A stretch of DNA of 49,964 nucleotides, the filler included, from Streblomastix strix (lineage: Eukaryota), in assembly GCA_008636045.1 (NCBI GenBank). It is 3 parts of 3 records of this genome, joined end to end, with 100 filler letters (N's around TTAATTAATTAA, not from the genome) between each part and the next. Parts side by side here need not be neighbours in the genome. Positions count along the whole stretch, not along the records: positions 33,382 to 49,964 come from SNRW01000792.1; 2 more parts are not named here. The stretch is one strand, 5' to 3'. Below the pieces are notes generated by a model. That model was given only the letters and a program-made list of their open reading frames with translations. It was not told the origin of the DNA and searched no databases. Shown one piece after another: positions 1 to 49,964 of the stretch. The first letter of the stretch is position 1. Every line of letters starts with the position of its first letter. A program made the translations under genes and the position numbers.

Positions 1-2
1 TT

Positions 3-11150: not shown

Positions 11151-11159
11151 AAAAGACAG

Positions 11160-18224: not shown

Positions 18225-18268
18225 TTGCTTACTTTATTTTAAATATAAACAAAGTAAGTCAAATTTCA

Positions 18269-18654
18269 ATGTCTTGGGATAACTTAATAACAATTTCATT
18301 ATGCATATTACTTGTTGTACAGATTATTAATTTTCACAGTAAAAATATTTGAAAACTTAGGTATTTTATATATTTTTAAACCAAATGCACATTATAAGAG
18401 AAGAATTCCTTGTTTATTCTAATTTTTTTAGTTCATTATTATATGTTGCCAATAAACCAGACCCTGAAATTGAACTCAGATTCTTATTATGATAATTCAA
18501 TAAGCGTCTCAAGATATAATAACTCAAAGAAATCATTAGTATTGCTTAAGAAACTAGTGGATAAGATGCTTCAATGAAACTAATCTAATACCTTAATGAG
18601 AAATGAACACAGTAGTATATTTACTCAGCTTTAGCTGATTAATCACATACGTGA
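18269..18654 (+). pseudogene. Small putative membrane protein, divergently transcribed from the MSKK gene
   Basis: MSWDNLITISLCILLVVQIINF...; homologue at 3394 in the same divergent arrangement. Confidence 0.55.
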
Positions 18655-18674
18655 GTATTTTTGATATTAAAGAA

Positions 18675-20973: not shown

Positions 20974-21131
20974 TAATTAAATTTATTTTATAAATCAAAA
21001 TTTTATGCTCGAGCCTCGAGCCGCCTAAATTAAATTAATTTTCTTATTTTTACTTATTAATAATAAGAATAAATAATTCATTTTAAATTATTATTTATTA
21101 ATAATTATAATCCATTTTACAATTATCCAAA

Positions 21132-24100
21132 ATGGCAGAAAAAAAATAATAAGCAAGTCAAACTTTGAAAAACAAGCTTAAAAACTAAAGACAACAGTAG
21201 AATCGTCGATAGCATCAGCTACAAGCACGTAAAGAACGACTTAAAGATCAGAAACCTATTATTTAACATGAACCTGTGGTAAAGTACATTCCTAAACCTT
21301 AACCTCAACAAACTGTTTATAATCAAGTTCCAAGAGCCATACCTAAGGATTTCATTAAGTAATAATAAGAAGCAAGTAAATATACTGTTTAAAAACAAGC
21401 TCCAAGGGCTTTATCTAAAGATTTCGTAAACCAATAGTAAGCTGCAAAAAAATCAAGAGAGAAACCAGCATAACCTATCAGAATTATTAATAAACAATAG
21501 AAATATGCTGATAAACGTAGAAGACATTATTAAATAAAATATCAATAAAAATAATTAGAGAGAGAATTTATAGATTAAGAATTCAACATGGAAATGATGG
21601 TACAAGAATAATTATAAGCTAGATCCTAGAGATTTGAATCTGGTTTATTGCCTTAAGAACGTGATATTCTAATTAGGAATAGATTAGAAATTCAACGTAT
21701 GAATCAATAATATTCAGATAGAAATGTCTATAATTTTGGCTACGATAATTAATAAATCATTCTTCTGACAGAACCAGTGAGATATGATCTATTATCATAA
21801 GTTATTGAAAATAAATGAGCGAATTTTAAAGATGAATAGATTGAATATGCTGGTAGGAGTCAATAAACAGCAGTTACAGTAATATTCTTTAATAATAATA
21901 TTACTTCACCAGAAGATTGTGATGCTTTTATAGAAAGAGTCTATTAACATAAGAATGGTAGATTATTCAAGTGTGGATTTGATTTTGGAACAGCTACTTA
22001 AAGATGCAAATTCATTATTGATCCTAATTATGCAGGAAGAGATTTTGTTGAAGCATTATATCCAGGAAGAACTCGTTATAAACCATATAAGACAACAGTT
22101 TTGAGTAAATTTAGAACTCCAATGGATTTTGAACAAGATTCTGTGAATAATAAATAAGTAACATACAGAATTAGACTTCCAGATGAGAATCATATTTAAA
22201 ATCATACGCTAACTATACTTTACAGCAGAAAATCTATTAATAAATTCAAACAATACGTAAGATCATCTATAATATGGATGTAAGAACGTACTGAAATGAT
22301 AGATACTAAAGAACTTATGGTTGCTATCTATTCAATGGAAGAAATGTCCTATAGAATACCATTTCCTGGAAAGAATATGGAAGAACTCATTAAGATTCAT
22401 AAAAATAAGAAGAATATCATAAGATATATATTCATTCCGATGATGTTTATAATATTTGCTTCTAATATAACTTAACTTGTATAACAATGCCTGATTCAAA
22501 AGGTATTGAAATCGATCGTCATTTAAGAATTGCTGAAGGTAAAAGATTATTATTTGAATTCTACAATGTCAAGAAAGAAAATCAACATGAATTTCTTAAG
22601 AATTATCCTGGATTTAACTGGGATGATTCATTGAAAGTATGTTAGAGATACAATATCAATATCAATTGTTATGAATTTGATGATAAGAACGTTGAAATTC
22701 CTTATAAATTATTCACAAATTATCATATCGATAATTAATAAGCCAAGGATTATAATATTCTTCTTCTTAACGATGATGACGGAAACTAACATCTCATATA
22801 TATTATCAGCGTTGAGAAGTTATTAGGAATTAAAATCTATTCAATATGTAATAATCATGCTATATTCGCCAAGGATCCTAATAATAATTCTAAGAGAAAG
22901 ATGGATACTCATATTAAAGAATGCCAGTAAAACAATGGTTAAATCAAGAAATATATTACTTTAGAGAAGTTCCCCAAGCCATTTGTTCAACACATAACAT
23001 CAAATAAGACATATAGATATCTCTTAGCTCATAATAGAGAATCAGAGTATAAAGCAACTTTGTATTATATAACATTCAGGTTTTAAATAAAGTTATTGAA
23101 AATTCGTAGTTATTAATATCCTATTCTTGTTCCAACAGCTGTAGCATCAACTATTAAAGCCAAGAAATATATCAAGACTATATCCTATGACAATTCTTAA
23201 TAAGGTTTCGTTGAGAAATGGATTGACCAGGTGTTCATTGAAGCATTGTAAATTCGTGATGATAATAAATTTGCCGATGATGTTCCTTAACGATATGAAG
23301 TACATGTTATTGGATTTGACTGTTTGAAATCAGCTATGACTCTAATATTTAAGAACATTAAATCAATGTAGTATAAAATTAACGATAGACCAGGTTCAAG
23401 GAGTTGTCAAATACACATCATTGTTAAATCCACTGATAACTCCATTCATCTAAAATTTATTGATGCTAAGAACTATGTCAGTGCTAATATTGAACTCGAT
23501 GATTTTCTAAGAGATATTGGTAAAGTCGAATTAAGCAATGAATTAATATGATAATCATAGTTATTATTATCAGCAATTGATAAAAAAATTAATGATTATA
23601 TTCTATATCATATAGATCTTCTATAGAATACATTGTTAGCAAAATTATCTTGCTTAAAGAAATATGCATTTGCCTATAAGAATTTTAATATTTCCTCGTG
23701 TATTGATCCAATTGATAATTCAAATCCTTATGATTTATCATTAGAATACTGGAAATCTAAAGTTAATTCTTACAATGAGTAGGATAAATGAAAGAAAAGA
23801 AGAACAGATCATAATATCACTTATGATGATTACGAATATTTTCATGATGCATTCTTAAAATAACGATGTTACATGTGTTAAACAAGATTTACTTATGATA
23901 ATTAGCCAACACTAGATAGAATAGTTAATGATAAATCTCATACAAAATCTAATGTATTACCTTGTTGTCCAAACTGTAATAAGTATGCTTCTAATAAGGA
24001 TAAGGAATCAGCGAGATTAATGATATAATTATGTAAGTATTGCGAATTATATAGCTTACCAATGACTATTTCTAATCAAGAAGTCTATAATTCATTACAC

Positions 24101-24320
24101 AATGATATTGTTGGTGGTAATTCATTCGTTAATCATAGAGAGAATATCGCTGGAAAGACTAAGATTCATAAATTTAAACTATAAGATGATCAAGTAATAT
24201 CTAATGTGCTTCTTCATATCGTTGAAAATATAATATGTCTAGATTTTAATAGTTTCTATGGTTCTTGTATGAGTTCAGAATAGCACCCACTAGTTCCTTA
24301 TAAACTAGTGGACAAAATTA
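21132..24320 (+). pseudogene. Protein-primed DNA polymerase B (family B), internally deleted and truncated after motif A
   Basis: FKCGFDFG, YNICF...QHLIYI, VIGFDCLKS (ExoII-like), LKFIDAKNY, RCYMC...PTLDRIVNDKSHTKSNVLPCCPNCN, DIVGGNSFVNHR, ICLDFNSFYGSCM; collinear with 44653-49594. Confidence 0.88.
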
Positions 24321-24952
24321 CGGTCAAAACGATCTATCAATATTTCTGAAGATATTGTTGGTCTTCTACAATAGATTTAATTTATTGTTATATATAATTA
24401 TTGTTATTACTAATCTAGCATGTAATATTGAAATCAAATTTTATTCATCCATTTCTATTCTTTTCCAGATATATAAATTTATTAACCTATATCACTTTTT
24501 TGATTGACAAAATTACGGTCAAGTTGTAATAATTATTAAATTTTTTATCCAATAATCAGAACTATTTTTATGAATTTATACAAATTGATTACATGTATTA
24601 TACTTAAGTAAATTATTAAAAAATAAATTGTCTAATTTAATTTCATTACAATCATTTTTAAAAATATTATTTAATTTTTCTAATAATTTTTTTTAATTAA
24701 AAATATTTAATTAAATTTTATAGTATCATAGGAATGGTACAATAAGCAATTAAGATACTTACATATTTATTTAAAGTAAATATATATATATAATAATATA
24801 TATCAACCAATTTCTATTATATAAAATTTATAAAAAAATTTTTAAATTTTTTAAAATATATATATTAATATAAATTTTATATTAGAATTTTTCAATTGAA
24901 AAATTTTAAATATTTTAATTTATTTAGACGGAGTTCTAGAGCAAAGAATTAA

Positions 24953-25938: not shown

Positions 25939-26464
25939 ATGATAGAAATTAATGAGTTTATACCTTTAGTCGTAGGTAATGATTATGAAATTTTAAATGT
26001 TGAGCCATATACTATCCGCAAAAAGTCAAATTGATTTATTCCTGTTATTAACACTGGGGCAAAAGGATATAAAAGAATAGCATTTAATTACAAGGAGCAT
26101 AATTATCATCGAGTATTAGCGATATAATTCATTTCTATTCCTGAAAATTTACCATAAATTGATCATATAAATCATATTAAAACGGATAATAGATTAGAAA
26201 ATTTAAGATGTTCATATTCAACCATTTGAATATTTTGATGATTTACCTGAAGGAAGCCAAAATTTGAACAAATATAATGAGTATGAACTGGAAGGATATA
26301 GTTTTGATTAAAATTTTAATGTTTATTACCGCAACAGATTAAAGTTTCGAAAGTTAAATGTTACTTTAATAAAGTACTATTCTGAAAATTTTAGAGTTTA
26401 TGATATAAGTAACAAATGCATAACAATTACACTTGATAAACTTAGAAATGGAAACTATGAATGA
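25939..26464 (+). pseudogene. HNH homing-type endonuclease
   Basis: DYEILNVEPYTIRKK...GYKRIAFN...YHRVLAIQFI..PENLPQIDHINHIKTDNRLENLR; one TGA and a deletion/frameshift. Confidence 0.85.
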
Positions 26465-33381: not shown

Positions 33382-33487
33382 ATAAAAAATAAGAAAAATA
33401 ACAAGCATTTTAGATTTGGGAGAGATAACAAGCAAAATTATTGGTGCTGTATCCAAAGGTTTAATGATTGTGCTAAATAAAATTTGA
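33382..33487 (+). CDS. 3' end of a small amphipathic protein (partial)
   Basis: ...KKITSILDLGEITSKIIGAVSKGLMIVLNKI*, followed by TGAAACCGTTA as at other viral gene ends. Confidence 0.4.
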
Positions 33488-33519
33488 AACCGTTAATTAA
33501 TGATTTTTATTTTTATAAA

Positions 33520-36500
33520 ATGGACGGAGATTTACATATGTTTGATGTTGTTTTAAATCATGATTAAGTGCTTTATGGCTCAAGTAAGTATAACACCATT
33601 GGCTTAATCAGTGAGGTAAAAAATATTGAAAATTTAATTAATATAATTAATGAAGCACCTGAAACTTATAATCGTGAAGAAATTGATGAAATGCTAGATA
33701 AAAAATTAAATATATCTGATTAAATTGATGCATACATCAAATAAGAAGATGATGCACTGCTGCTGTTGAAGGCTGATAAATCAGAGCTCATTGATGCATA
33801 TTCGAAAACTGAAGATGATGCACTACTCGACGACAAATTAAATATTACTGATTAAATTGATGCATATAATAAATCTGAAGTCGATGCACTACTCGACGAC
33901 AAATTAAATATTAATGACTTAATCGATGCTTATAGTAAGTAAGAAGATGATGCGTTGCTGTTATTGAATGCTGATAAAATTGAGCTAATTGATGTATATT
34001 CGAAAACTGAAGTCGAAGCACTACTCGACGACAAATTAAATATTACTGACTAAATCGATGCATACAATAAAACTGAAGCCGATGCTCTGCTATTATTGAA
34101 GGCTGATAAATCAGAGCTCATTGATGCATATTCGAAGACTGAAGCCGATGCTCTACTCGATGAAAAATTGAATAAATCCGATTAAATTGATGCATATAAT
34201 AAAATTGAGGTCGATGCTCTACTCGATGAAAAATTAAATATTTCTGATTAAATCGATGCATACAATAAAACTGAAACCGATGCCCTACTCGATGAAAAAT
34301 TAAAATATTTCTGATTAAATCGATGCATACAATAAAACTGAAGCAGATGCTCTACTCGATGAAAAATTAAATATATCCGATTAAATTGATGCATGTAATA
34401 AAATAAGAAGATGATACGCAGCTGTTGTTGAAGGCTGATAAATCAGAGCTCATTGATGCTTATACGAAAATTGAAGTCGATGCCCTACTCGATGAAAAAT
34501 TAAATATTACTGACTAAATCGATGCTTATAGTAAATAAGAAGATGATGCTCTGTTGTTGTTGATGGCTGATAAAACAGAATTAGCGGATTATGTTGATTT
34601 AGCTTCTACTCAGACGATAACAGGCCAAAAATAATTCGGAATAATTAGTGTTTCAAGCATATCGAAATAAAATAAAAAATGATGCTTCTATTCTTCTTGC
34701 TGGCGGTGGTGATATGCTAGTAAGTTCATTGATATCATAGCCATAACTATAAGAAGTTCGAAATATTGCATCAGGCAAATCAAAAGGATATGTATTTATA
34801 ACAACGGATGAGATGAAAACTTGGATGGAAGATTAAGAAAACGTTACAAAATTAGCAATTTGTGATAATTTATATATAGTTGATAAATAAGTCATGGACT
34901 ATTGGTGGGATGGCTCTAGTCTTCCAGCACTAGAAACAGAACTGCCAGATATGAGCAACGTCATGACCATTCTTGGTGCTGCTACAGGAGGCGACAATGC
35001 AATAACAGATTTATCATTTGATGGAAATACACTAATACCCGCGAAAAATAGTTCTTTTATAACGACTAACTATGATGAAACTATTACAGGTTAAAAGACG
35101 TTTTATACAACTATTCACTCTGTCGGAATATCTGTATAAAATTACGATAATAATTCTGTTGTTTGTGCTGATGGTGGTGTTAAGGCCATATAGGACATAA
35201 ATGCAAGCGTCGATTTTTCAAATTATTATAATAAATCATAAACATATTCATTAACTGAAACAGATTAAAAATTAAATCTAAAATTGAATATTTCCGATTA
35301 AATAGATGCTTATACGAAGACATAAGATGATGCGTTGCTGTTGTTGAAGGCTGACAAAACATAATTAATTAATGCATACAATAAAACAGAAGTCGATGAC
35401 CTACTCGACGACAAATTAAACGTAAGCGATTAAATTGATGCATACACAAAAGGAGAAGCTGATAATCTACTAAATAATAAAGCTAATTCTGGGGTTTCAT
35501 ACATTAAAGGAGAAGATGACGCTTTGCTATTATTGAAGGCAGACAAAACATAATTGATTGATGTATACACTAAAGGAGAAGATGACGCTTTGCTGTTGTT
35601 GAAGGCTGACAAAACATAATTGATTGATGCATATACAAAAGGCGAAACCAATAATCTTTTAAATAATAAAGCCGATTCTGGGATTTCATACACAAAAGGA
35701 GAAGCCGATAATCTGCTCAATAGTAAAGCCAATTCAGGAGTTTCATACACTTAGGGAGAAGATGACGCTTTGCTGTTGTTGAAGGCTGACAAAACATAAT
35801 TAATCGATTCATATAAAAAAGGCGAAACCAATAATCTTTTAAATAATAAAGCCGATTCGGGAGTTTCATATTCCAAATAAGAAGACGATGCGTTGCTGCT
35901 GTTGAAAGCAAATCAATCAACAACTTATACCAAAATAGAAACTGATTAATTAATATCACAAATTGAAGTTGGAGATGTTGATTTAAGCGGTTGTATGACC
36001 TTGGGCACTTCATAGACAATAACAGCAAACAAAACATTCAATAATGCTTGTAGATTTGTAAGTTCTATCGATGGAATGGCAACAATTACAGGCACATAGT
36101 TTGTTAAATCTGGCGCTGACGATATTGTTGTATAACTTGGAGCTGGTGGCACTAAGCAAATTTCTGAATTCGCTGGTGCTCCAGCTGATTTATCAAACTA
36201 TTACACAAAAACATAAACATATTCAAAAACAGAAACTGATAATAAATATGTAAGATTGGAAGGCTCCATTTAATAAACAATAACAGGAAGATTAAAATAT
36301 GTTAGCCCATTTGGTGAGACATATGATGAAACATAAGACCCTGTAGCTAACACTTATTTAACTTAGTCAGAAGTTGATGCAAAACTAACAAATTACGTCA
36401 ATACAGTTAATAATTAAGAAATTAATGGCACAAAAACATTCAATGCTAATGTTAATGCGACAGGATTTGTGAAAACAGGCAAAGATGATACATCGGTTTT

Positions 36501-36849
36501 ATTGGCTGGTGGTGGCGACCGATTATTATCTTCATTTGGAGGGATTAAAGACTTAACATCGTCGGCATTTTCTGGTATGAATAGTGCAGTAATATAATAT
36601 AAATTAATAAGAATTGGAAATCTTTGTATATTTTCATTACTCGCTAATGTACGAAATTACAATATGGGAACATTTAACACTGACTACTTAGTTTAGGATG
36701 ATGTTGCTGTTATAACATATATACCATTTCCGAATCACACTTTTGATAAAGGCGGTTATGTATCGATTACTCATTCAACTGGACTTATTACCTGTAAATC
36801 AACAACTAATACATATATATAATGTGTATCTGCTACAAAGTTTAAATGA
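33520..36849 (+). pseudogene. Long fibre-like protein (~1100 aa): 22-aa and 19-aa shaft repeats, four tail-fibre modules, C-terminal head; frameshifts in A-runs
   Basis: Shaft repeats IDAYxKxExDALLDxKLNIxDQ / EDDALLLLKADKxEL and GVSYTKGEADNLLNNKANS. Modules QTITGQKQF..SILLAGGG and QEINGTKTFNANVNATGFVKTGKDDTSVLLAGGG. Head KLIRIGNLCIFSL...GYVSITHSTG. Confidence 0.75.
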
Positions 36850-36896
36850 AAACCTTGAAATTGTTTGGATTAATTTTTTATTTTTATTGAATATAA

Positions 36897-38475
36897 ATGT
36901 TGAATGTTTATATTGATGAAAGATTATTAGACGCAGCTGGTTTATCGGACTTCCCAGAATTATACGCATATATCAAAGAACGTTATCCTAAACTCATTGG
37001 TGAATTACCGCAACCTGTTCCAATTGGGGACCAAACTCTGTAATAGCAAGTGAAAAATAATGACGATATTATCTACGCATCAAACGAAGTATTCGAGCCA
37101 CCAGTGCCTAATGCAATAACGAAATTGGATTTGAGTTCGTAATTAGAGCGAAATAGTTTTTTAGCATCTAGTGGTTCAGATCCAACATTAATCGTTTATG
37201 GCGATAGAATCACATTGACAGCGTCATACGCAACAACAGGTGTATTTCCGAACGGATATTTATTTAAAAGCTATCCACAAGAAGCGAGACCAAAACAGGG
37301 TGATTAAGTGATTGCATTAGTTGGAACCGACGCATCTAATACATATAATATATTTTGTTATATCGATTAAGGGGGGCTATTTATTATAAGCAATAGATGG
37401 CTACCGTCAAATACTGCTCTCGTGCTTAATATCACATATTATAAAAATTATGAATCATCGAAAAAATTAAATTATGATGCCAATAATGATGGAAAAATAG
37501 ACATTATGGACACGTGGAATGTAAATGGAAAAGGCTAATTTGAAGCGTAATCGTATGTCTATGAAACTGTGAAAAATTAAACAAATTTAATCGAGGCGGG
37601 AGTGTAAGGGCTAAATAGAACTAATTATTTGAACAGTGAAATAAAACTAGTGGATGAATTAGCGATATATAAAGCAGATAGAGCAGCATATTTTAATAAA
37701 GACGATCCATTTATCACTTATAGCTTTGGGGCAAAATTGGCACAATTAGGCGCCAATTATGAAGCATAATAGACTGTATATAAATTATTTTCGACAATCA
37801 GCAAAAAAGTTCTACCGCCTAATACGAAATATATGCCTATTCATGTAGAATAATAAGAATTTTCCGCTATGTGTTTGTTCAAGGATATGTATGTTAAGTC
37901 GTCAGCTGTATAGGTGGCCGTTAGTGGATAATTAAATATGCTAGATTGTGAATTTCAAGGAACTTATATACTTGATAATTATACAAATGAATCAGCATCA
38001 AATGAAGCATTACCTGAAGATGTAGAATCTCACATCGACGAAGTAATAATAAACATGAAAAATAATTAGGTTCATCACCACAACCACAATATACGATAAA
38101 TAATGTTTATAATCAGTTTATGATAAATGATTTTTCCCCTCATCAGCATATAATACGTTCTATATCATTGATGATGTCACTTGCAGAGTATGCGTATTCA
38201 ATCTATATTTCGAATCTAAAGGTTTAGATGGGAGAAAGTAAGAGGTTGGTCGTATTCCTGATTCAATATTACCTGCAGATGGTAAAAGTTTAGGCTTCGC
38301 TGCGGCTGTATATAGAACAAAGGGCGGAAGATAGAATAATTTTTCAGTGAATTATTTTATTGTAAATTCATAATTTAAAATGCTATACTTTTAAATATCT
38401 GAACCATAAGAGTCAATACCAACGGATTCAGCTGATGTTTATAAATATTGTGCTAGTGGAATGTATTATTTGTGA
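36897..38475 (+). pseudogene. Protein with tandem fibre-head-like beta domains and a DxNxDGxIDxxD (dockerin/EF-hand-like) motif; frameshifted near 38080-38140
   Basis: TLIVYGDRITLTASY...YPQEARPK...FCYIDQGG, YDANNDGKIDIMD, RVCVFNLYF...VGRIPDSILP...SGMYYL*. Confidence 0.6.
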
Positions 38476-38500
38476 GAAACAGCACCTGCAACATCAACGA

Positions 38501-38626
38501 AAAACGATATTTTGGCATGCATAAATGGTGTGGTTTATGAATGACATTTAGCTGCACCGAGTGCATCGAGTGCATCGAGTCAAAAACTTTCATCAAAAAT
38601 TGCTGCCAGCCTGCCATTCTGCCAGA
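38501..38626 (-). repeat. Intergenic repeat, variant B, reverse orientation
   Basis: GCACCGAGT-GCATCGAGT-GCATCGAGTCAAAAAC...GCTGCCAG-CCTGCCAT-TCTGCCAG. Confidence 0.9.
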
Positions 38627-38707
38627 AATGAGAAAAATAAATAAAAAAATCATTTATTCAAATCCAAAATAATACACATAAAATTTTATTTTTATTATAA
38701 ATAAACG

Positions 38708-39022
38708 ATGGCTGTAGGTATCTTTTCAAAAATCAAATAGTTAGTTTAAAAGGTATGGAAGGGTCTTTAATGGGTGAATGATAACGTTTATAAACCGTTC
38801 ATAAAACCATTTGCAAAGCCGATACTTGGAGCACTAGGTCCCATGGGCTAAACAATAGGCAAAGGTTTAGATGTTGCTAGCTCATTTCTTGATTATTGCT
38901 ATGGTGCAGATAAAAATGGTTAATTTAGATAAGATTTTGAAACATTGAGAAATGATGAATATTTAAGATAAAAATTACCAATTGATATACAGAGTCGAAG
39001 AATACAATTATAGAACCAATGA
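38708..39022 (+). CDS. 104-aa protein with N-terminal amphipathic helix (adenovirus pVI-like membrane-active candidate)
   Basis: Intact ORF MAVGIFSKIKQLVQKVWKGLQWVNDNVYKP...LGALGPMGQTIGKGLDVAS, directly upstream of the MCP. Confidence 0.7.
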
Positions 39023-39076
39023 AAAATATAAACATTAACGTTTGAGCATTACTTATTTTTTATTTTTTCTAAATTA

Positions 39077-39203
39077 TTGGCCAGTTGTCCAGTTGGCCAC
39101 AGCTTTTTATAAAAGTTTTTGACTCGGAACACTCGGAACACTCGGAACACCTAAAAGTCATTCACTAACTGCATCAATTATCCGCGCCAAAATATCGCTT
39201 TTT
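39077..39203 (+). repeat. Intergenic repeat, variant A, forward orientation
   Basis: Near-identical core to 1164 and 1412. Confidence 0.9.
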
Positions 39204-39279
39204 CATAAATGATTTTTCCAATTATCAACGTTTTTATATTTCATTAAGTATTTATTTAACTATTTCATTTTTTTATTGA

Positions 39280-41002
39280 ATGTAAAAGATGAATAGATTT
39301 CTAATGAAAGCCACACATTTACAACAAGCAGGGACCATTGAAGAAACATTATTAGGTACTGCTGTCGTTCCATTCACTATTGACGGAGAACTTCATTATT
39401 CAATCAAGGAAATCAAACCAGAATCTTAAATGCCAGCGTTATTTGATAAGGAGATTATTATAAGTTTATCAGACACAGACCACGACATCACATAGATATA
39501 AAATTCGTTCTTGTCGGTAGTGCTAACGGCTAATATCTAACTCGATGATAAATTTGATAAAATTGATGAATCATATAAAGACGGATTGGTTCTATTTGTT
39601 GGTCTCAAATCGGGTTCAAATCTTATTAGAGAATACACCATCTATCATAGAGGTAAAACCATCTATGGAAGCTTATAGAATGACGCAACAACTGAATCAT
39701 TCATTTATAACACAATCAAGCCGAAAAGTGAGAAAAATAATAGAAAACATATACATTTTTTATACGAGAACATTCATAATTTTGATACGTCAGCGTGTGG
39801 AACATATATAAGTATGCGAGAGATTGAAGAGCTAATAGGAAATCAGACAGCGGTTCCTTATACAATTCCAATACGTTTTAGAGTCAGTATTCCACTTGAT
39901 GACCTCTTGATATTCTCTGCATTCACTGATTACCCTAATGGCCTATTTGGTGATTTAAAAATAAAATTCAAAATTAATCTTCATGCATTTGTTTTCTGTC
40001 AAGTGAATCCAATAATTTCAATGGCTAAATATTATATAATGAATAAAGATGAATTATTGGGTAGTAGTCAGTAGAAGCTAATGGATAGTGATTTGATGTT
40101 CAGAAATTGGAGTCTGACATTCTAATACACTAAATAATTTACATAATTGGGATGCATTGCTGATTTGATTACAGGACTACATGCGGAACCACTTACTGAA
40201 TCAGGACTGAAGAACTTAATATGCGACATCAAACCCGTTACCATAAGCATAAAAAAATTATTTCATTACTGAGGTTGCTGCACACATGGCAGGTTATAAA
40301 GCTACTGATGCATGCCTTAATCGAGTCCGTTAATTCTACAGCTAACTTCCATTTGTTGTTCCCGCTCAACATGTGGAAGCATGACCATTTCCAACGAGTG
40401 CCGCACTAACGGGAATACGAACATCTTAAAATATTCCTCTATCTCACGTAACCGACTTCTTCCGTCTATTTCTTAAAGATGCAAGAGCAACAACTTGCTT
40501 AGATAATCCTTGCTATTAGAACATGTTTTTAATTACCTGTGGCCGCAATTTCCCAGATATGCCTATGAATACTCTTGATCAATAATTCTTCCAATTATAA
40601 CTCAATGCATCAAATCTTGACCTGTTATTCGAAGCCACTGATGAATTTGAAGATGCTTTAACAACACCAAGAAATACAGCAACCCGAAGACTGAACCCTC
40701 ATACAGATTTAACAAGCTTTTTGATAACTCTTTAATGTGAAAGGAACAGCAATGGAGCACTAACTTTTGATGGATTAGACACTCAGAACTAAAACACATC
40801 TGTCGAACTCAGAGAAGCACCAATATATTAAGGAGCAACAGATTCATATTATAATGTAGATACCAGCGGAAAGAGACCGCCACCTCCGATTTTATGCACT
40901 GTTCATGATACATTTTTGTTGTTCTCACCCGCTGCGGGCGGAAGCTGCATATATGATACAAACCATTCATTTGATGAAGTTATCGGACCACATAGTGCAT
41001 GA
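39280..41002 (+). pseudogene. Major capsid protein (double jelly-roll, ~570 aa); one frameshift (~40255) and one in-frame TGA (~40382)
   Basis: Beta-rich sequence: DITQIQNSFLSVVL, SNLIREYTIYHRGKTI, FRVSIPLDDL..F..FTDYPNGLFGDLKIKFKI, CGRNFP, TFDGLDTQNQNTSVEL. Size and position beside penton-like gene and ATPase support the call. Confidence 0.75.
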
Positions 41003-41135
41003 AATAATTGAACCGTTATTTGATAACATTTTTATTTTTTTATTTATATATAACTAACATCTAAACATTAATATAGTTAATTAAATAGGTCATTGGTTAT
41101 ATTTCTAATAACTATTTTTATTTATTTTATAATAA

Positions 41136-41531
41136 ATGGCTTCAAATATGACATCAGCATAAAACTTAAAATATTACACTTTGACATAAGATGATGGAAT
41201 TGTAATCGGAGAAAACAGATAAAATGGAGTTGGTTTTGCATTACCATATGCGTTTGTAAATTCAGATAATTAAAGAAAAATAATATTCTGCTAATGTCAT
41301 TGTTCAAACTAAGGCACTAACGAGGACATAAGCGTTCATAGTTCAATGGTTCAAGAAGAATAATATTTCGATTAATTTCTAGGCTATTGTAATGAATAAC
41401 GAGTCTATAAACCTTTCATCCAATATTCGCACAACAGATATTTATATGTATCGTTCCGTTAAAATTAAGAATTATTGGATATATATTAAAATTAACTAAA
41501 ATTTGTTCTGGAGTTGATGCTAGAATATTGA
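41136..41531 (+). CDS. 131-aa minimal penton/minor-capsid-like protein
   Basis: Intact ORF ...GFALPYAFVNS...KIIFCQC...ISVHSSMV...YLYVSFRQNQELLDIYQNQLKFVLELMLEY*. The C-terminus fits the single jelly-roll penton pattern; directly follows the MCP. Confidence 0.55.
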
Positions 41532-41536
41532 GAACG

Positions 41537-41561
41537 TTGCTGGCTCAAAAATGAGCTAGCA
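41537..41561. terminator. Stem-loop just after the penton-like gene stop
   Basis: TGCTGGCTCA-AAAA-TGAGCTAGCA. Confidence 0.35.
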
Positions 41562-41657
41562 CATTAACAGTTTTATTTTTGTTTAAATCATCGGGCCACG
41601 CTACCAACTAAAAACACCCACCCCTAGAAAGTTGATGGGCTAAATTAGCCGGACAAG

Positions 41658-41994
41658 GAAAAATAAATTAGACAATAGAATTGAAAATTTACGTTGGGTA
41701 AATAACTCGGAAAATCAGAAAAATAAGGGTAATTACAGGTAAAATATTATATATAACATTATAAATGAATTATCTGATGACGCAATAGTGGTAAATGATT
41801 ATGGAAAATATTAATTTGAATTTATTTGTTTCGATAACAATAAATTTTATTTCTATAACGGATTATAATATCGTGAATTGCATATAAATGAGCATTAATC
41901 TGGCGCGTTATTTGTCTATGCTTTTGATACAGACAAGAAATAACGGCTCATTTACCTTAACAAATTTAAGAAATTATATGATATTCAAATTTGA
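41658..41994 (+). pseudogene. 5'-truncated HNH endonuclease
   Basis: NKLDNRIENLRWVNNSENQKNK...ELSDDAIVVNDYGKYQFE...FYFYNGLQYREL...YLNKFKKLY; same family as 25939. Confidence 0.8.
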
Positions 41995-42028
41995 ACAACG
42001 TTATTTATTTTATTTTTGCAGAAATAAA

Positions 42029-42388
42029 ATGGAAAGAATATTATTTGACAACAGAAAAAACAATTAATTTACTTCAAAATTATAAATAGAAACGGATGAA
42101 TAGGATGAAATGCCACTCGAGGAGGGGGTCGAAGGTTAGACTAACGGACATAAATATTTTGAGACTTTAAACGATTTCAAATAATTTATTTCCCAAAATA
42201 AATAATAATTATCTAAACTATCAACGTAAAAACTAAATAAATTATATAAATTGGAAGGTTATAAGTTATCAAAAATAGAAGGTCAAATATGTATAAGAAC
42301 TTGTGCGAAAGACTAATTGAATAAGATTGAGTATAAATTAGACTAGTTTTTGGATGTTCTGAACCATTTGGTTTAAGCGCTGAAATGA
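42029..42388 (+). CDS. 119-aa uncharacterised viral protein
   Basis: Intact ORF ...KYFETLNDFKQFISQN...LSTQKLNKLYKLEGYKLSKIEGQICI... with C-terminal coiled coil. Confidence 0.65.
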
Positions 42389-42476
42389 ATGACTTTTAGC
42401 TGCACCGAGTGCATCGAGTGCATCGAGTAAAATAGGTTCTATGAAAAATGCCAGTCGATCCGCCAAATAGTCGAAA
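42386..42476 (-). repeat. Intergenic repeat, variant B, reverse orientation, partly degenerate
   Basis: TGAATGACTTTTAGCTGCACCGAGTGCATCGAGTGCATCGAGT. Confidence 0.85.
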
Positions 42477-42500
42477 ACGTTGATATTGAACATATGCGTT

Positions 42501-43288
42501 TCAGATTATTTTTACAACTGTTCCACTCATTTCATATTAGACCACTAATGCTTATTATTTGGTTAATCGCACATACTCATACCATATTGTTTCTTTATCT
42601 GATGGTATAGAAGATTAATAAAAAATTAATTAAATTTTAATCTGTTAAATGAACCGAAGAACCATAATGAATCAAGATTTGATTTAATCGCAGCATCTAA
42701 ACCAATAATGTCCTATAAACAAAGAAAGTAAGTTATTCTGGGCTATCGGTTCTTAAATAATTTTTTAAATTGTGGATTATTTTTATTTTTAAATATACTC
42801 ATTGCATCGTCAAATAAAACAATCGTTTGGGGAAATTTGACATCAAAATTACCTCCTCCGTTAGCTCCAAATACATTGGTTAATATATCATTTTATGACT
42901 TTTCAGTTAGTTCTTTTTATAATTATTTTTCTTAAATTTCATCATACGCTTATTTGCATTCAATCAAATCATTTAGCACTTAATCCGCTTCGGCATATGG
43001 AATAATTTTTGTAGGGATTTTAATTAAGTCCTTCATCTTTTTATAAATGGTATCATTATTTGAGTCGCTGACGTATATGAATAAGGTATAACAATGTTTT
43101 TTTAACTGACTTAACTTTGTTAACTCTTTGAAGACATTATACATCTTGCCACTGCCACGCTAACCTATCAATAAATTTACAGAGTTATATGTAAAATTTA
43201 ACTCTTTATGAATAATAGTTTAAATTTCGTGCTTATTCACTTTTATTTCTTTTAACATGTTATCAACTTTTTATTTTAAACTCGCCAT
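42501..43288 (-). pseudogene. A32/FtsK-family genome packaging ATPase; one frameshift near 42625
   Basis: Walker A LLIGQRGSGKM, Walker B TIVLFDDA, arginine finger/sensor KNRQPRITYFLCLQ, IKSNLDSLWFF. Confidence 0.88.
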
Positions 43289-43327
43289 TTTTATTATATA
43301 AAACTTTTTTTATCGATAAGAAATAGA

Positions 43328-44376
43328 ATGTCAGAAATGCTCGATTTAAAACAAATTGAAAAAGATCCAAGATAAGAATTTGAAGTAGAAAAAAGCGAAG
43401 GTGGTAGTGGTGCAGGTGGGATGATGGACATTGATGGAATGGAGGATGATTACAATTATTATGAATCATAAGCATCAAGATAGGACAGGATGAAATCACG
43501 AGCAAAACCGTTTGATAGGCTACCGTTCCATCCCAGTATGATTCAGAGAACAAGAAAGCATGCAGGCCCATAATTTAGAGAAGAGGCGGGGATGTCCTTG
43601 CTACACTCGTTGGTTATTTGAATAGAGATATAAAGAAAATTAATAGGTTATCATCAGCCGTCAGTGCTCAAAAATATATATAAGATAAGCATTTAGACAA
43701 ACGATTTAGTGTATTGGAATAGGACTTAGATGATAATGTAGCCATTCCTGATAATGTGGTTGTGTTTGATAAGAAAAAGAACGCAATTTATTCAGTCGAT
43801 GGTTATACAACAACAGTAGGATTTGGCGACCCATAACATTAACATAAAAGAAATTGGAAGAAAAAATATTATTCGGATGTTAATGATTTAGAACGAGCTG
43901 CATTGGCAGCCAAATTAAAACAATAAGGAATAAAAGGCGGCCTTTACATGAAATGGTTATCAATGACTAAGCCGCATAAGGTAAGAGAAATAAAGAATTA
44001 TAGTTTCAGAGCATTTACCGTCAATGCTAAAAAAGTCATAGACGCTAATGGAGGCGCATAATTGCCAATGGCAACCAAACAATAAATAATGGCATCTGTT
44101 TGGAATTCAGTTCTTATTAGTCCTGCTGTAGAAATATTAGAAATATAAGACGGAAAAATAGACATATATAACAGAAGTAATAAAACTAAAATTTAGTAAG
44201 GATAATACGAATATTTACCACTTGCTAAAAGATTGTATAAGAAAGAATTGGCTGCCGTTATTACTCAACTATATTAAGCTGAAGATGTCGATGCTAGAAT
44301 TAAGGAAGCACTTGGATAAGCTATGTAATATTATGGTCAAATGTTAGCATAGATAGCAATAAATAGGTGGTTATGA
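43328..44376 (+). pseudogene. Uncharacterised ~350-aa viral protein (possible core protein), one frameshift
   Basis: MSEMLDLKQ...SEGGSGAGGMM...SAQKYIQDKHL..FSVLEQDLDDN..PDNVVVFD...IYSVDGY; divergent from the ATPase with only 39 bp between starts. Confidence 0.6.
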
Positions 44377-44450
44377 ATTAGCTAAATACAAATTCATTTA
44401 AACCAAACAATGATTTAGCATAAATTTATTTTTAATTATTTTTCTCACTT

Positions 44451-44604
44451 CTGGCAGAATGGCAGGCTGGCAGCAGTTTTTGATGAAAGTTTCTGACCCG
44501 ATGCACTCGATGCACTCGGTGTAGTCAAAAGTCATTCATAAACAACTCCATTTACGCGTGCCAAAATATTGCTTTTTATAAAAGTTTTTGACTCGATGCA
44601 CTCA
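44451..44604 (+). repeat. Intergenic repeat, variant B, forward orientation, with partial second unit
   Basis: CTGGCAGA-ATGGCAGG-CTGGCAGC...GACCCGATGC-ACTCGATGC-ACTCGGTG...ACGCGTGCCAAAA. Confidence 0.9.
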
Positions 44605-44652
44605 ATAATCCAATTTATTTATGTAATTATTATTTATTTTTATTATAAATAA

Positions 44653-47600
44653 ATGACAGATAAATAGGGGTATGACTCGTAAAGACGATCAACGCCTCCG
44701 ATTGTGCATCCAATTACACCACAAATTCAAGCACTACCAGAATTATAACCGCTTATTTAATCACCTAGATAAACGCAGTCATAAATGACGTAAATGTAGG
44801 ACTATATTACATAAATGCAAATGCGCAACTATCAACCATCGCCAGAATTATAAATGGAACATCAGCAATAGTAATTGATGCAAATGTAGAATTATATTAC
44901 GTAAATGCAAACATATAATTACCAGCAAGCCCCTTCGGGCCCAGCCGAAGGCTCGCCTAAACTGCAACCCGAATAAGGCGGAGCTCAAGATGTGCGGCGG
45001 ATTATCAAGTGAATTTAAGGCACCAAAAACTAACACCAGAAATAATATGAGAGTTAATGACTTTATGTGACCCTGAAATTTAATAGAAAATAAACATTAA
45101 CGAATTAAGGTCGTAATTTTCATTAATTTTAGATAAAATTCATTTAGAAAAGGGTAGAAACAATAGGGATATAGTTCGAAATGCCATATTATAATCAAGA
45201 CCATTTGCATAACGGGTAAGGTAAGATACTTAAATAGGCCTTCAAAATGAACAAATAATAGGTAAAGTTTATGCTAAATAATTTTTTCAAGAAAAAAATA
45301 ATACGTAGAATATGTGCACTTAAGACGAATAGAGCAAACAACACAATTAATAATGGGAGCAAATGATGGAAGATTAGCGAGAGAGACATGTAGATCTATT
45401 AAAAGAAATTAAAGAATAAAAAATAAACCTTAAATAAAAATAAAATGTTGATGTGTTTAAAAATGTTAGAGATGAAATATAGGAGTTTAATGAAGAAAAT
45501 GAGGCAAGAATTATAGGCGAATTAACGCCCTGCAGAATACGATTATGTTATGTGAGCCACAACTCGAATAAGAATATGAAAGAAGAATTAATTTTGAGCG
45601 AAAATATATGTAAAATTAACACGTAAAATACGACCCATTTTATGTTCATACCATCAGCCCTACAAAAGAATATTACAAAAATGATTTGAAAACGATTGAA
45701 GATCTCGATGCTTACATAGATGAAATATATTAACGAGAAAAAAAATTTGCATTCAAAATTGCATTTGATTTTGGAGTGATTATTGAACGAGTTGATGGCT
45801 AGGAAAACGATTAATAAATAGCATATAAAATTAATCGTCCCCTTGAAGCTAGGACAGAGATGAGAGCTCCAACAACCATACGCACCCAAATCGACCTTGT
45901 CGATTATAAACGATTCATTAGAAACCACATTATTCAAATGTAAGAGAAAAACATTATGGACACAAAAGAGAAAATAGTTGGTATATTTTCAATAATGATT
46001 TATGTGTTTAGGCTTCCACACGCAGGCGCTGGAGGTGGTCGAACAATACCATCATTAAAGAAGCACATTATGAGGCGAGAGATTCGATATGTTGACCCTG
46101 AGAAAAATAATTAAAATTTATGTTTATTTCTAGCATATTCTTTTACTATGATGCCAGTCATTAAGGCTGATGTTGCTGCTGACGGTTCCGCTATTCCTGC
46201 AAAGCGTTATAAGGAATATTCACGTATTGCTGAAGCAAAACGATTATTTTAAAGAATCTATGGCAAGAAAATAGATGAAAATTATAATGGGTTTAATTTT
46301 GCAACAGAAGCGGATTAATTTATTTAAAATGAAAATTTAAATATTAATGTGATCGCTTATGAAGAAACAACGGCAACCTCAACGGCAGCACCAGCCAATT
46401 CAGGCAGTTATTACCTATGGAAGCAATATAGAAGTAACGAACAGAACGAATAAACTAAAGATTTTAATGTTCTTTTAATAACCGACACAATCATCGAACT
46501 ACAAACGGCTCACGTTTTTTTATATTAATGATGTTGAGGCGCTAACTGGTTTAAAATATTGCCCTATTTGTGGTGTGTAGGCTTATAAGACCAGAGATTC
46601 AAATTTGTAGTCAAAACTAAAAAGACACATATAAAAATGTTAAAAAAATGAGGGAAAGATAATAAAGAAAGTATATTTAGAAAAATTTCCAAGGCCTTAT
46701 GTTCCTTACATATTAAATAATGTTAGCTATAAGTATCTACTGGCACATGGTCGAGAGGATGAATTTAAACCTACTAAATATTATGTAACATATGATATTG
46801 AAACTGTAGAAAGAATCTTAAATGAAACATTCGGTGATAATTCAACATAAATTTCAATTCTTGAACCCCTTTCGATTGCAAGCACAATAAAAACAAAAAA
46901 AGGAAGTCATTAATGGTTCAAATAACGGTTCCGTTGATTAAATTTTTTCGATTTATTTTGACATTCGAACCCCTAACTTTATTAATGTTTGGATTAAATA
47001 GTTATTTAAGGAAGCCCGAAAAGTTATTGATTCAAACAAATATGAAGATGAGACGATACCATAGCATTATGAGGTTCCAGTAATTGGGTTCAATTCTTCA
47101 AAGTTCGATGTGGCTCTAATTCTTAAAAATTTATAGAGCGATGAGTGGCAAATCATTAAATATCTTGGTAGTGGTTCAAACGTTAAATAAATTATTGTTA
47201 AGCATAACATATCAGGAATAAAATTGATGTTCATTGATGCGATGATTTATTCTACAAAAATGAAATTAAAATAATTCATAAAAGATTTCACACCAAAAAG
47301 ACAGCAACAACGGAAAAATCAGAAATTCCAACCAAATTAAAATTTCCATATGAATTCATCAACTATGACAATTACTATGAAATATTTAATAATCCTTAAC
47401 CATTTCCTATTGAAGCATTTAGAAACTCAATTAAAAATAAAAATATAAGTCAAGAAAAATATTTAAATTATTTATCCATAGCTTTGTAATTTTCGAATAG
47501 GTGGGATTACCTCCGACACTATAACCTCTAAGATACTCGCTTAATGATTGAGCCACTTGATTACTTAATTGATATGTTCTTTAATTATAAAATTGATATG

Positions 47601-49594
47601 CTGCAGTTTATGTCGATGTCAGCATGCGCTAATGCTATCAAATATGCTCTTGCTTATTGGGACTTCAAACTAGATTAAGACTGCACGCCAAAAGATGATT
47701 ATGCTTCTTTTATTTTGACATAAAATTATTGGAACATCAAAGTTTAAAATTATCTAGAATAAGATAAAAAAAGAAATAGAGACACAAGCAATAATATTAA
47801 AGAATCAGATTGTGCGTTCTATTGAAAATTATTTCTATCAACAGGATGCCACATATGCAAGGCACGATTCACAAGCAAAAATCTTCCAACATTAGATAGA
47901 ATCAACAACAACATGGGCCATTCTGCAGATAACGTAAAACCTTGCTGCTTATTTTGTAATAAATTTAAGTCAAATAAAGACGAAAATTTAACAAGATTAG
48001 TAATACAATTAAAAAATTTCTGTTTGTTGAAGTCGCTACCTATGACAATAACCGGTGAAGAAATATATTAAATTTTACGTTCTGGTATCACTGGTGGATT
48101 ATCATAAGTCATGCATCGCTATAATGTTGCAGGTGAAACTAAAATAAATAAATTAAAATTTATTAATGGAAAGGTCATTAGTCAGGACACAGACCACACA
48201 ATGACCCATCTTTTGACTCTAGATTTCAACTGTTAATATCCCAGCGTTATGAGCTCAGAGCCGCATAAGTTCATCAAATATACAGGTAATAAATTATACA
48301 TGGCGGGATAAATATTGGATAAAATTACTGATAAATAAACAGCAAGAAATTTAATTTATAATCCAAATCGATTTAATGACGTTGAAGGAATGCCGCTATT
48401 TATCGTAGCTGTTAAAGGACACATCGACGAATAGCATATAAATGATTTTATTAATTTTCTTCCGATATTGAGAAACATTGACATAATGACCGATGAAAAA
48501 CATTAGGGTCATACATGTATAACCTATTACTGAAAAATAACATGTTGCACGACAAAAATGAACGAAAATTAACAAATTTATCATCGACGCATGGATAGTT
48601 CATGTCGTTCAATAATTATTATTTGTGGCTTCTCATTGATGATTTTCATTTCATTATTGACGATATTTAATGTCTTATAACGTTCTCAAAGCACGATAGA
48701 TTTAATCCATTCGTTAAGGAATTTATGAATCAAAGAATATAGGCAATAAATGAAAAAAATGATGGAAAAAAATAAATCTATAAATAAGCTATGAACTTAA
48801 TCTATGGAACTGATGGGATGAATTAAGAAAAATATTAACAAACGAAATTGTTGAGCTCTGATAGGACATGGTTGTCTCATCTCTAAGGTTCATTCGTTAA
48901 TGATTAACAATTAACAGATGATTTATATGCTGTATAATTGAATGCTGAGAGCTGCAACTGCAACACCTGCCTACATTCTGCTTATTTCGTGGTAGATAAT
49001 AGCAAATACTGGTATATAAATTTTATCTATAATTTTATGGCCAAAGCTTTCGATATGAACAGGATGCACTATATTTGTGGTGATATTGATTCGATGACAT
49101 GGGCCATTAGCGGCAACCCAGAAGATGATTACAGACAGAAATTTAAAAATATCATCAATGACTAAAAATTTTTCGATGAAAATTACCCATTATTCTTCGG
49201 TTAGTATAAACAATTATTGGGAGTCAGTTATGAGGCAGAAGGAACTGCTTGCATTGCTCTAGCTCCAAAAATTCGTTACATTTATAATCCTCTACCTAAT
49301 GAGAATGAAAAGGATTATAATTATTGTTTGAAAGGAATAATATAAAAATAAAATGTTCATTTAAACGATGAAGCATTTAAATAATCATTGAATGGAGAAT
49401 AAATATAAGCTCAAAATATTATTCTTGGTTAAAGAAATAAATAAATGTCAAAAATATAAATAAATAAAGTTGGTTTATCATCCATTCATAATTAAATGGT
49501 TGTGCTTGAAAATCAATGTTGTGCTCCGTTCCTTTACATTAACGGATAGCAATTGAGTTCAGATAATTATATAATTATTAATGATGAGCACTGA
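44653..49594 (+). pseudogene. Protein-primed DNA polymerase B with long N-terminal extension (Gln/Pro-rich, terminal-protein/OTU-like region) and embedded HNH module; several frameshifts and TGA
   Basis: ExoI VTYDIET, ExoII IGFNSSKFD, KFPYE, ExoIII YLRHYNLQD, SGITGGLSQVMHR, motif A LDFNCQYPSVM, motif B KQAMNLIYG, motif C ICGDIDSM, IALAPK. Confidence 0.93.
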
Positions 49595-49611
49595 TGATAG
49601 GCACTAAAAAT

Positions 49612-49726
49612 AAGCGTTATTTTGGCACGCGTAAATGGATTGGTTAGTGAATTACTTTTAGCTGCACCGAGTGCATCGAGTCAAAAACTTTCATCAAAAA
49701 CTGCTGCCAGCCTGCCATTCTGCCAG
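49612..49726 (-). repeat. Intergenic repeat, variant B, reverse orientation (two 9-mer units)
   Basis: TTTTGGCACGCGTAAATGG...GCACCGAGTGCATCGAGTCAAAAAC...GCTGCCAGCCTGCCATTCTGCCAG. Confidence 0.9.
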
Positions 49727-49799
49727 ATAGTCGAAACATTATTTGAATCATTAACATCTCCATTAATGCCTTTAATTGTTTTATTTTTGCAAGAAATAA

Positions 49800-49964
49800 A
49801 TGTAAAACGAAAATAAATTGTATGAGGATATCCTTAAGACTTTTGCAGGTGAATAATATCAAAGGGAAGAATATGAATTTGAAGTGTAATAAGATATCGA
49901 TGATAAAGCATATAAAGTTCATTATAAAATGAGTCTATCAGAGTTCATAAAAAATATCTTTAAA
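49800..49964 (+). CDS. 5' end of next viral gene (partial, unknown)
   Basis: MQNENKLYEDILKTFAGEQYQREEYEFEV..., preceded by the T-rich/ATAAA leader seen at other viral starts. Confidence 0.5.

Follow-up and report, generated by a model that had tools for sequence, protein, structure and literature searches.

A probably decayed Maverick/Polinton-type virus of the Metamonada group, with TAA and TAG read as glutamine, on a contig filed under Streblomastix strix

Introduction

The Metamonada group of viruses, whose major capsid proteins (MCPs) form cluster 40 in the survey by Bellas et al. 2023 (PMC10120064), brings together elements from the oxymonad Streblomastix strix, a termite-gut protist, and the Maverick-Polintons of Trichomonas and Tritrichomonas. 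The sections of that paper dealing with S. strix report 820 hits, list reference MCPs that stand at about 32% to T. vaginalis capsids (Table S5), record that these elements use TAA and TAG for glutamine, and accept such a code as a sign of host origin; they contain no gene map and no description of a polymerase or repeat. Metamonada capsids fall outside the Maverick-Polinton clade or are unplaced in the relevant portions of the published papers, and a 2026 preprint, in its passages on Trichomonad/Metamonada capsids, could place them neither in Polintoviricetes nor in any other group. A KilA gene has been reported for parabasalid polintons. According to a separate paper, the endonuclease inserts of polinton pPolBs are diverse and sit at differing positions. 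Jeong et al. (10.1101/2023.08.22.554363), where they treat pPolB2, describe an HNH domain that is unique to oomycetes and terrestrial nematodes and absent from all 'other pPolB2s', those of Metamonada among them.

Here we describe a contig that is very probably the inner 16.6 kb of a Maverick/Polinton-type DNA virus of the Metamonada group (cluster 40), using TAA/TAG as glutamine, likely integrated in S. strix, and likely decayed and not working alone. At the family level nothing separates it from that group: capsid family (66-85%), fold, code and labelled host are all those of cluster 40. With Polintoviricetes (animal Mavericks/Polintons/adintoviruses and Gosseviruses) it shares a pPolB whose exonuclease is preceded by a vOTU-like region, a double jelly-roll (DJR) capsid and a gene-dense layout, together with a putative packaging-type ATPase. 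On this contig, which is incomplete, no Ulp1/adenain-type protease was found among 24 pieces scanned with Pfam and no integrase in Pfam and PHROG scans; nor, in contrast to parabasalid polintons, was KilA seen among the 24 pieces.

Results

The contig and its genetic code

The window, the whole stretch of 49,964 nucleotides that was analysed, consists of three contigs separated by artificial N44-TTAATTAATTAA-N44 spacers. They appear to be sorted by size (16,591, 16,590 and 16,583). Our subject is the third contig (33382-49964), which is open at both ends. It shows neither flanking host DNA nor a terminal repeat nor a target-site duplication, and both element ends are missing; integration of this copy is therefore not seen directly.

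Under table 11 only five ORFs of at least 90 aa are found on the contig, each of at most 129 aa, so that the standard code yields fragments alone, as a sequence-only reading of this DNA had stated. Only with TAA and TAG as glutamine does the contig become a virus gene array, about 91% coding. When it is read with table 6, stop-free frames of at least 300 codons occupy 52% of it, against 12% in shuffles; with tables 11 and 4 the share is 0%. When the capsid gene was compared with 10 distant homologues, glutamine stood opposite TAA/TAG in 70 of 182 aligned pairs, opposite CAA/CAG in 26 of 75 and opposite other codons in 2.8%, figures slightly biased by alignments built under table 6. TAA and TAG account for 168 of the 217 glutamine codons (77%) in 13 gene pieces, close to the 63 of 87 in a gene of contig 2 that is likely the host's. 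These results confirm the non-standard code that had been proposed. Standard-code pipelines miss such elements, and their genes are stored in databases as hypothetical host proteins.

The features of the contig are as follows.

33520-36849, + strand: long repeat-rich gene, putatively fibre-like; about three frame switches, near 34307, 34400 and 34674
36897-38475, + strand: gene in which head-like segments recur; two frame switches, near 38050 and near 38130
38500-38647, + strand: intergenic repeat r1, subtype A
38708-39022, + strand: 104-aa ORF with an amphipathic-looking N-terminus, candidate pVI-like
39053-39216, - strand: repeat r2, subtype B, 90-92% to contig-1 copies
39289-41002, + strand: MCP (DJR capsid), from homology and the fold of a relative; one frameshift, one stop
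41136-41517, + strand: short gene, about 130 codons in two frames, candidate penton
41551-41994, + strand: free-standing HNH endonuclease ORF (Pfam, PHROG), start probably damaged
42029-42388, + strand: 119-aa ORF, no function found in Pfam and PHROG scans
42385-42451, + strand: intergenic repeat r3, partial, subtype A
42490-43288, - strand: packaging-ATPase-like gene, putatively A32-like from its motifs; likely frame switch near 42619
43328-44410, + strand: gene divergent from the ATPase gene; one frame switch around 43587 and an uncertain 3' end (44376-44410)
44429-44603, - strand: intergenic repeat r4, subtype A, plus an extra partial unit
44653-49594, + strand: pPolB, by homology from 45512 on, probable start at 44653; at least seven pieces
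47847-47960, + strand: zinc-binding insert of HNH/endonuclease-VII-like type, placed in pPolB after Exo III and before Pol A (PHROG_1035, PHROG_3118)
49609-49743, + strand: intergenic repeat r5, subtype A
49800-49964, + strand: beginning of one more gene, truncated where the contig stops; no match found

The capsid belongs to a published family

Along its full length, taken in two pieces, the window capsid shows 79/85% identity with KAA6401509.1 and 66/72% with KAA6381728.1, both given as confirmed MCPs of cluster MMPC_40 in the lists of Bellas et al. (PMC10120064). Membership of the cluster is set at 25% identity over 30% of the length with the group's confirmed MCPs, and by that measure the window capsid falls in cluster 40. 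Among the best 120 of 242 capsid matches, all 119 named proteins bear the label S. strix, the remaining row being the window's own. A quick tree of 59 rows (19 from the S. strix group and 40 unnamed near-full-length proteins, hand-picked) sets the window inside the S. strix group with both published MCPs (19 rows, SH-aLRT 100).

The fold was checked on P0004, an intact protein 92% identical to the window capsid. An alignment of only 42 close relatives gave a pLDDT of 36; with 87 rows the result was a double jelly-roll model at pLDDT 91, which Foldseek matched to PBCV-1 at 1.5e-14 and to Sputnik at 7.7e-14 (Z 20.4 against the PBCV-1 capsid). Through this relative, which was modelled in place of the broken window gene, the MCP-like gene that had been placed at 39280-41002 is shown to encode a double jelly-roll. 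It has that fold in common with the capsids of Sputnik (3J26), mavirus (6G45) and PBCV-1 (Vp54) at Z 16-20, but at 5-11% identity, so that the likeness is one of fold alone. No Pfam family matches any of the 87 capsid relatives (DUF4106 is absent), and a PDB sequence search is blind to the family. Two capsid relatives share one 56.9-kb contig, which exceeds the size of such an element, so some copies sit in larger DNA.

A polymerase with an HNH-type insert

The pPolB gene likewise bears out the earlier reading, although it is broken. Its region from about 45500 to 49594 matches Pfam DNA_pol_B_2 at 1e-5 (25.1 bits, slightly below the cut-off of 25.8), and its pieces are 33-56% identical to long relatives. 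Its order is a vOTU-like Cys/His region, Exo I-III, the HNH-like insert and Pol A-C. Catalytic motifs are altered: Pol B reads NLIYG as against N[GS][SA][YF]G, and Pol C GDIDS as against DTDS in most relatives.

The insert matches PHROG_1035 (endonuclease VII, 1.9e-7) and PHROG_3118 (HNH, 4.7e-5), and its motif is present in 28 of the 36 rows of the relatives' alignment; judged by that alignment, it appears to be conserved across the gut-associated clade. None of the 61 pPolB matches is labelled oomycete or nematode. Like the pPolB2 domain in the account of Jeong et al., it is a Cys4 zinc-binding HNH-type domain inside pPolB, but it belongs to an oxymonad-labelled clade, and the two are likened by description, not by insertion site or ancestry. 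In a literature survey that took in part of the Bellas supplementary tables and the main texts of preprints, neither this insert nor the repeat treated below was found described for S. strix.

Other genes

The 33520-36849 gene has repeats of about 20-40 aa by direct inspection and matches PHROG_5004 (function unknown, 1.9e-18) and Pfam BppL_N (8e-4). Its neighbour at 36897-38475, by its motif a candidate second fibre- or adhesin-like gene, has no significant match in Pfam, PHROG, NCBIfam or PDB. The sole match of the 104-aa ORF is a PHROG tape-measure family (residues 4-45, 7.7e-5); no match in Pfam, PHROG, NCBIfam and PDB searches of the contig's genes names either pVI or a fibre. For the candidate penton there is no Pfam match in either frame and no PHROG match for the second. 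The HNH gene was correctly recognised, matching HNH_3 at 4.5e-5 (below the Pfam cut-off) and PHROG_99 at 8.1e-6. As for the proposed A32 ATPase, a packaging-type ATPase is weakly supported by the Walker A (GQRGSGKM), Walker B (IVLFDD) and RQPR..CLQ motifs seen by eye and by the best profile match, a terminase ATPase (PHROG_2666, 6.3e-5); the A32 assignment itself has no profile match.

An alternating intergenic repeat

A repeat of about 130-160 bp fills the four largest intergenic gaps and part of a fifth, in alternating orientation. The repeats show read depths and short-sided joints that we do not count as a measure of copy number or as proof of rearrangement. Rfam has no match within the window. 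A structured-RNA or hairpin reading was rejected because the five copies show no folding signal (z -1.7 to +2.0).

Breaks and linkage

The dense gene array described from the sequence is real but not intact: it contains about 15 frame switches and three in-frame TGA codons, and residues are altered in Walker A and in two polymerase motifs, Pol B and Pol C. Most breaks lie within or adjoin A/T/G runs. Related copies have indel differences at nine in-gene places, among the 12 rows listed. Zero-difference contigs in run X1, possibly the window's own source and so not independent, back the window's letters at 40467-40570, 41679-41882 and 41853-41978. The contig spanning 40467-40570, a stretch in which conserved residues of the capsid are replaced in the window, has a depth of 34.

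Three of the 19 pPolB relatives on contigs of at least 8 kb lie on a contig equal in size to that of a listed capsid and at most four locus tags from it, where 0.7 would be expected (p ~0.03, from a partial capsid list). An exact look-up of 10 window proteins matched none (0/10). Pattern searches for related loci gave 57 matches in viral_contigs, none confirmed, 0 in a second search there and 0 in each search of metagenome_contigs; these blanks say little, because exact patterns were used.

Discussion

We interpret the contig as likely one decayed, integrated copy among hundreds, and not as a new lineage. Capsid, pPolB and code support the part of the sequence-only reading that saw a DJR virus of Maverick/Polinton type, adapted to a protist with code 6. 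By analogy with established Polinton biology, DNA synthesis in an intact member would begin at the genome ends with the N-terminal protein of the pPolB as primer, and the vOTU-like domain may then cut the primer protein off as the linear genome is copied. The ATPase would pack this genome into a double jelly-roll capsid bearing fibre-like spikes, and the insertion of new copies would fall to an rve-type integrase.

It is conceivable, if improbable, that the element is an intact and possibly active member of the known group whose breaks arose as errors when near-identical copies collapsed. The clustering of breaks at homopolymer runs fits this, as do the many relatives annotated whole (capsids of 555-573 aa, polymerases of up to 1,448 aa); multi-copy elements do assemble with false frameshifts, artefacts of this kind being documented for other protists in the pertinent part of Bellas et al. 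(PMC10120064). Against it stand the in-frame TGA codons, the substituted catalytic motifs and the window letters backed in run X1, although that backing does not extend to the frameshifts. Decay of this copy remains the preferred reading.

The host name rests on the labels of relatives in a single-cell metagenome assembly. That assembly carries 'MAG' labels, the contig lacks a host flank, and all five listed runs are from termite-gut or unnamed samples, as might be expected if the virus belonged to a different termite-gut protist with code 6, or was a free virus amplified along with the host cell, and had been filed as S. strix. We regard either as very improbable, given the S. strix label on hundreds of diverged copies, the closeness of TAA/TAG use to that of the likely host gene on contig 2, and the acceptance of the code as evidence of host origin in the cited sections of PMC10120064.

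The core claim is already published and adds little as discovery. What the contig supplies is a gene map, with polymerase and repeat, for a group that still had no taxonomic place in 2026 and is known almost solely through its capsid; in addition, the HNH-bearing polymerase puts a published 'unique shared trait' to the test. A joint reading, which we offer as speculation with a low chance of being right, is that the Metamonada viruses found in oxymonads and other gut protists, so far without a place, make up a separate lineage of high rank, that one HNH insertion is common to their polymerase and the oomycete/nematode pPolB2 (the trait would then have a greater age, or have been exchanged more widely, than the literature has it), and that the repeat is terminus-derived and bounds gene cassettes, enabling inversion or swapping between copies.

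The least credible account is that of the sequence-only reading itself, an undescribed lineage with its integrase and terminus on contig 1: the 87 Pfam-less capsid relatives, the 5-11% identity to solved capsids and the integrase-like fragment and r2-like repeat on contig 1 speak for it, but family, host and code are in print in the sections of PMC10120064 cited above, the contigs are separate, without overlap and apparently size-ordered, the supposedly linking repeat occurs five times within contig 3, and the fragment, seen by eye, has no significant match in Pfam, PDB, PHROGs or NCBIfam. Close identity to a described family, which that reading had itself named as removing the novelty, is what the capsid has; its sense of divergence was fair, since the relevant passages of the 2026 preprint still leave the group unplaced. 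The contig-1 fragment is at best another copy. The r2-like repeat on that contig ends in a 5'-AG short tandem run.

Affiliation of contig 3 and its capsid

The virus on contig 3 is real, and its group is already known together with its host and its code. The element under study is the whole of the third contig, and the spacers that join the contigs are artificial (N44-TTAATTAATTAA-N44):

1-16591, contig 1
16692-33281, contig 2
33382-49964, contig 3

Since the contigs stand in descending size (16,591; 16,590; 16,583), their adjacency looks like size sorting rather than biology.

In the available text and tables of Bellas et al. 2023 (PMC10120064), capsids of S. strix and five parabasalids make up a 'Metamonada group', and the S. 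strix elements are said to use the same altered translation table. The authors count 820 hits in this species (Table S4) and model one of its capsids, which matches Sputnik (Table S3); among the rows for their capsid cluster MMPC_40, KAA6381728.1 and KAA6401509.1 are listed as confirmed MCPs (Table S5). Both proteins are present among the cluster members of our capsid search matches. The window's two capsid pieces are 66 and 72% identical to KAA6381728.1 and 79 and 85% identical to KAA6401509.1, and in a quick tree they all fall within a single S. strix group (SH-aLRT 100). With group, host and code thus already described, the new virus lineage proposed by the sequence-only reading does not stand. 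What is left of interest is a gene map for an unplaced group, an HNH-bearing polymerase and the internal repeats. In the accessible parts of two preprints, Metamonada elements are still ungrouped (June 2026, 10.64898/2026.06.19.733378) and a Trichomonas capsid falls outside the Maverick-Polinton clade (October 2026, 10.64898/2026.10.13.758929).

With the N-terminal capsid piece as query, 242 relatives were found; the best 120 comprise the window's own protein and 119 entries annotated as hypothetical proteins of Streblomastix strix. Intact relatives (555-573 aa) align to 39289-41002 across two frames; two lesions interrupt the gene there, a frameshift near 40255 and, at 40382, a TGA. A profile search added 547 further proteins at E<=0.001, and the ten examined are metagenomic or NCBI records. 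The intact relative P0004, 92% and 84% identical to the two pieces, was modelled from an 87-row alignment (pLDDT 91). Double jelly-roll capsids provide the best structure matches of this model, namely PBCV-1 (1.5e-14), an iridovirus, Sputnik (7.7e-14) and mavirus, with a structural alignment at Z 20.4 and rmsd 4.6 over 365 residues; its matches in the viral structure library are of this kind too, so that the fold expected for 39280-41002 is borne out as a prediction on a relative. Outside the S. strix group, the closest capsids (P0190, P0192, P0193 and P0197; 41-42% identity) are long and unbroken; should they have been predicted under the standard code, the change to TAA/TAG=Gln would fall on the branch leading to the S. 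strix group.

Genetic code

Under table 11, contig 3 holds five ORFs of at least 90 aa, the longest no more than 129 aa. Stop-free frames of at least 300 codons cover 52% of it with table 6, against 12% in 20 shuffles and 0% with tables 11 and 4. When the capsid is aligned with 10 distant homologues, Gln is faced by TAA/TAG in 70 of 182 pairs, by CAA/CAG in 26 of 75 and by other codons in 2.8%; for the polymerase and 20 homologues the figures are 119/1,016, 49/311 and 2.1%, all from alignments built under table 6 and thus slightly biased toward this result. Because TAA/TAG face Gln much as CAA/CAG do, they behave as Gln codons, and the altered code assigned from the sequence is confirmed by frame coverage and codon counts together. 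Across 13 gene pieces of contig 3, TAA/TAG account for 168 of the 217 Gln codons, a share close to that of a likely host gene on contig 2 (63 of 87). With gene bounds set in the analysis, contig 3 is 91% coding. A TTT(T)ATTTT tract, a motif picked after the proposed starts had been inspected, lies 6-36 bases upstream of 7 of these 12 starts and of 9 of 763 other ATGs.

Polymerase and its HNH-like insert

Long S. strix relatives of the protein-primed family B polymerase (pPolB) can be aligned over 45512 to about 49576, split among at least six frame segments; a start at 44653 is suggested by the tract upstream and by a TGA in frame at 45048. The family alignment shows every one of the motifs Exo I-III and Pol A-C. 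In contig 3, NLIYG and GDIDS take the place of N[GS][SA][YF]G and DTDS, the forms found in most relatives. A region with Cys and His ahead of Exo I, kept in most long relatives, may at motif level correspond to the vOTU domain described in the available text of PMC11161782.

Between Exo III and Pol A lies an insert (CxxC...TLDRIxN...H...N...CxxCN) matching PHROG endonuclease VII (1.9e-7), PHROG HNH (4.7e-5) and, at 0.083 only, Pfam HNH_5. The strict pattern occurs in 28 of 36 rows; two of the 36 are window pieces that stop short of the insert. Key residues are conserved in 29-34 of the 33-34 rows covering it. An HNH-type domain is likewise present in the pPolB2 of oomycete and nematode Polintons, to which the accessible text of Jeong et al. 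(10.1101/2023.08.22.554363) calls it unique. No oomycete- or nematode-labelled protein is among the 61 polymerase matches, and polinton pPolB inserts are diverse and at differing sites (PMC11161782, same text); shared ancestry of the inserts is therefore no more than a possibility.

Contig 2 carries another pPolB of this clade (20970-24349), which is truncated and further decayed; it has the same HNH-like insert, with 48% to the contig-3 piece. An inverted repeat (20116-20936) brackets it upstream, and a nearby 376-aa Ser/Thr/Asn-rich ORF (18675-19805), without Pfam or PHROG name, is possibly a structural gene of that element. Two same-clade polymerases carry prokaryotic labels (P0427 and P0438; Methanobrevibacter sp. 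and Alphaproteobacteria bacterium) and are probably protist-virus DNA binned into gut MAGs.

Other genes

Two further genes can be described:

42490-43288, minus strand, ATPase-like gene with a Met-bearing Walker A, Walker B and an R..Q motif
from 41551, HNH ORF

The HNH gene is upheld by profile matches. The packaging ATPase is a candidate: the motifs can be seen by eye, although Walker A usually has Thr or Ser in place of the Met, and the sole profile match is a terminase ATPase at 6.3e-5. Repeats are obvious in the first fibre-like gene, which matches an unnamed phage family at 1.9e-18. For the second fibre, pVI and penton labels the profile scans gave no naming match; the penton candidate comprises about 130 codons only, split over two frames. 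On inspection by eye, ORF 25943-26464 has a C-terminal part similar to the end of the HNH ORF, with no BLASTP match between the two at 1e-4.

Decay or assembly error

The dense intronless array first envisaged is interrupted by about 15 frame switches and three in-frame TGA codons. Contigs of four runs carry small indels relative to the window, and of the 12 places listed out of 18, nine are in genes and three intergenic. Most of the nine sit at switches found independently by frame walks, so open-frame copies likely exist. Zero-difference contigs of run X1 (depth 30-39) back the window's letters in three stretches, one with unusual capsid residues; X1 is possibly the window's own source, and these stretches speak for the letters there, not for the frameshifts. 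Most breaks lie in homopolymer runs, consistent with slippage and assembly error alike, and PMC10120064, in its available text, warns of false frameshifts from assembly. Real decay is nonetheless well ahead of assembly error, and contig 3 is likely one broken copy.

Repeats and linkage between contigs

A repeat of about 130-160 bp, with an internal 9-mer three times over, fills the four largest intergenic gaps of contig 3 and part of a fifth (five copies, r1 to r5, orientation +,-,+,-,+), and has two further copies on contig 1. Copies r1, r3, r4 and r5 form one subtype (85-97%), r2 and the contig-1 pair another (90-97%), with 72-84% between subtypes. Neither an Rfam match nor a folding signal was found for it. 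The alternation is only suggestive, since five copies would alternate by chance in 1-in-16 cases. Polinton ends bear a short tandem run starting 5'-AG; because the outer contig-1 copy ends in such a run, also beginning 5'-AG, we tentatively favour a viral cis-element with its origin in the terminal repeat. The rival reading is a mobile repeat of small size that is tolerated nowhere but between genes.

Being internal to contig 3 five times, the repeat by itself neither marks a terminus nor ties contig 1 to the contig-3 copy, and the integrase and terminus placed on contig 1 through it lose that link. By eye, ORF 3-722 of contig 1 resembles the C-terminal portion of an rve integrase, but Pfam, PDB, PHROG and NCBIfam searches gave no significant match. 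Linkage of pPolB and capsid in other copies has modest support: 3 of 19 pPolB relatives on contigs of at least 8 kb have a listed capsid relative on an equal-sized contig at most four locus tags away (0.7 expected, p ~0.03), modest because the capsid list takes in only 53 contigs of that size.

At 3-1573 the integrase-like fragment is followed by a small ORF (starting about 769), two direct repeat copies (97% alike) and then apparently non-viral DNA; this stretch may represent the right-hand end of another copy. A broken gene family common to contigs 1 (2431-3810) and 2 (17172-18677; 67-71% DNA and 41-58% protein identity), with no Pfam match, could be another repeated element. Contig 1 also holds a diverged inverted duplication at 11244-12268 (40-50% at protein level).
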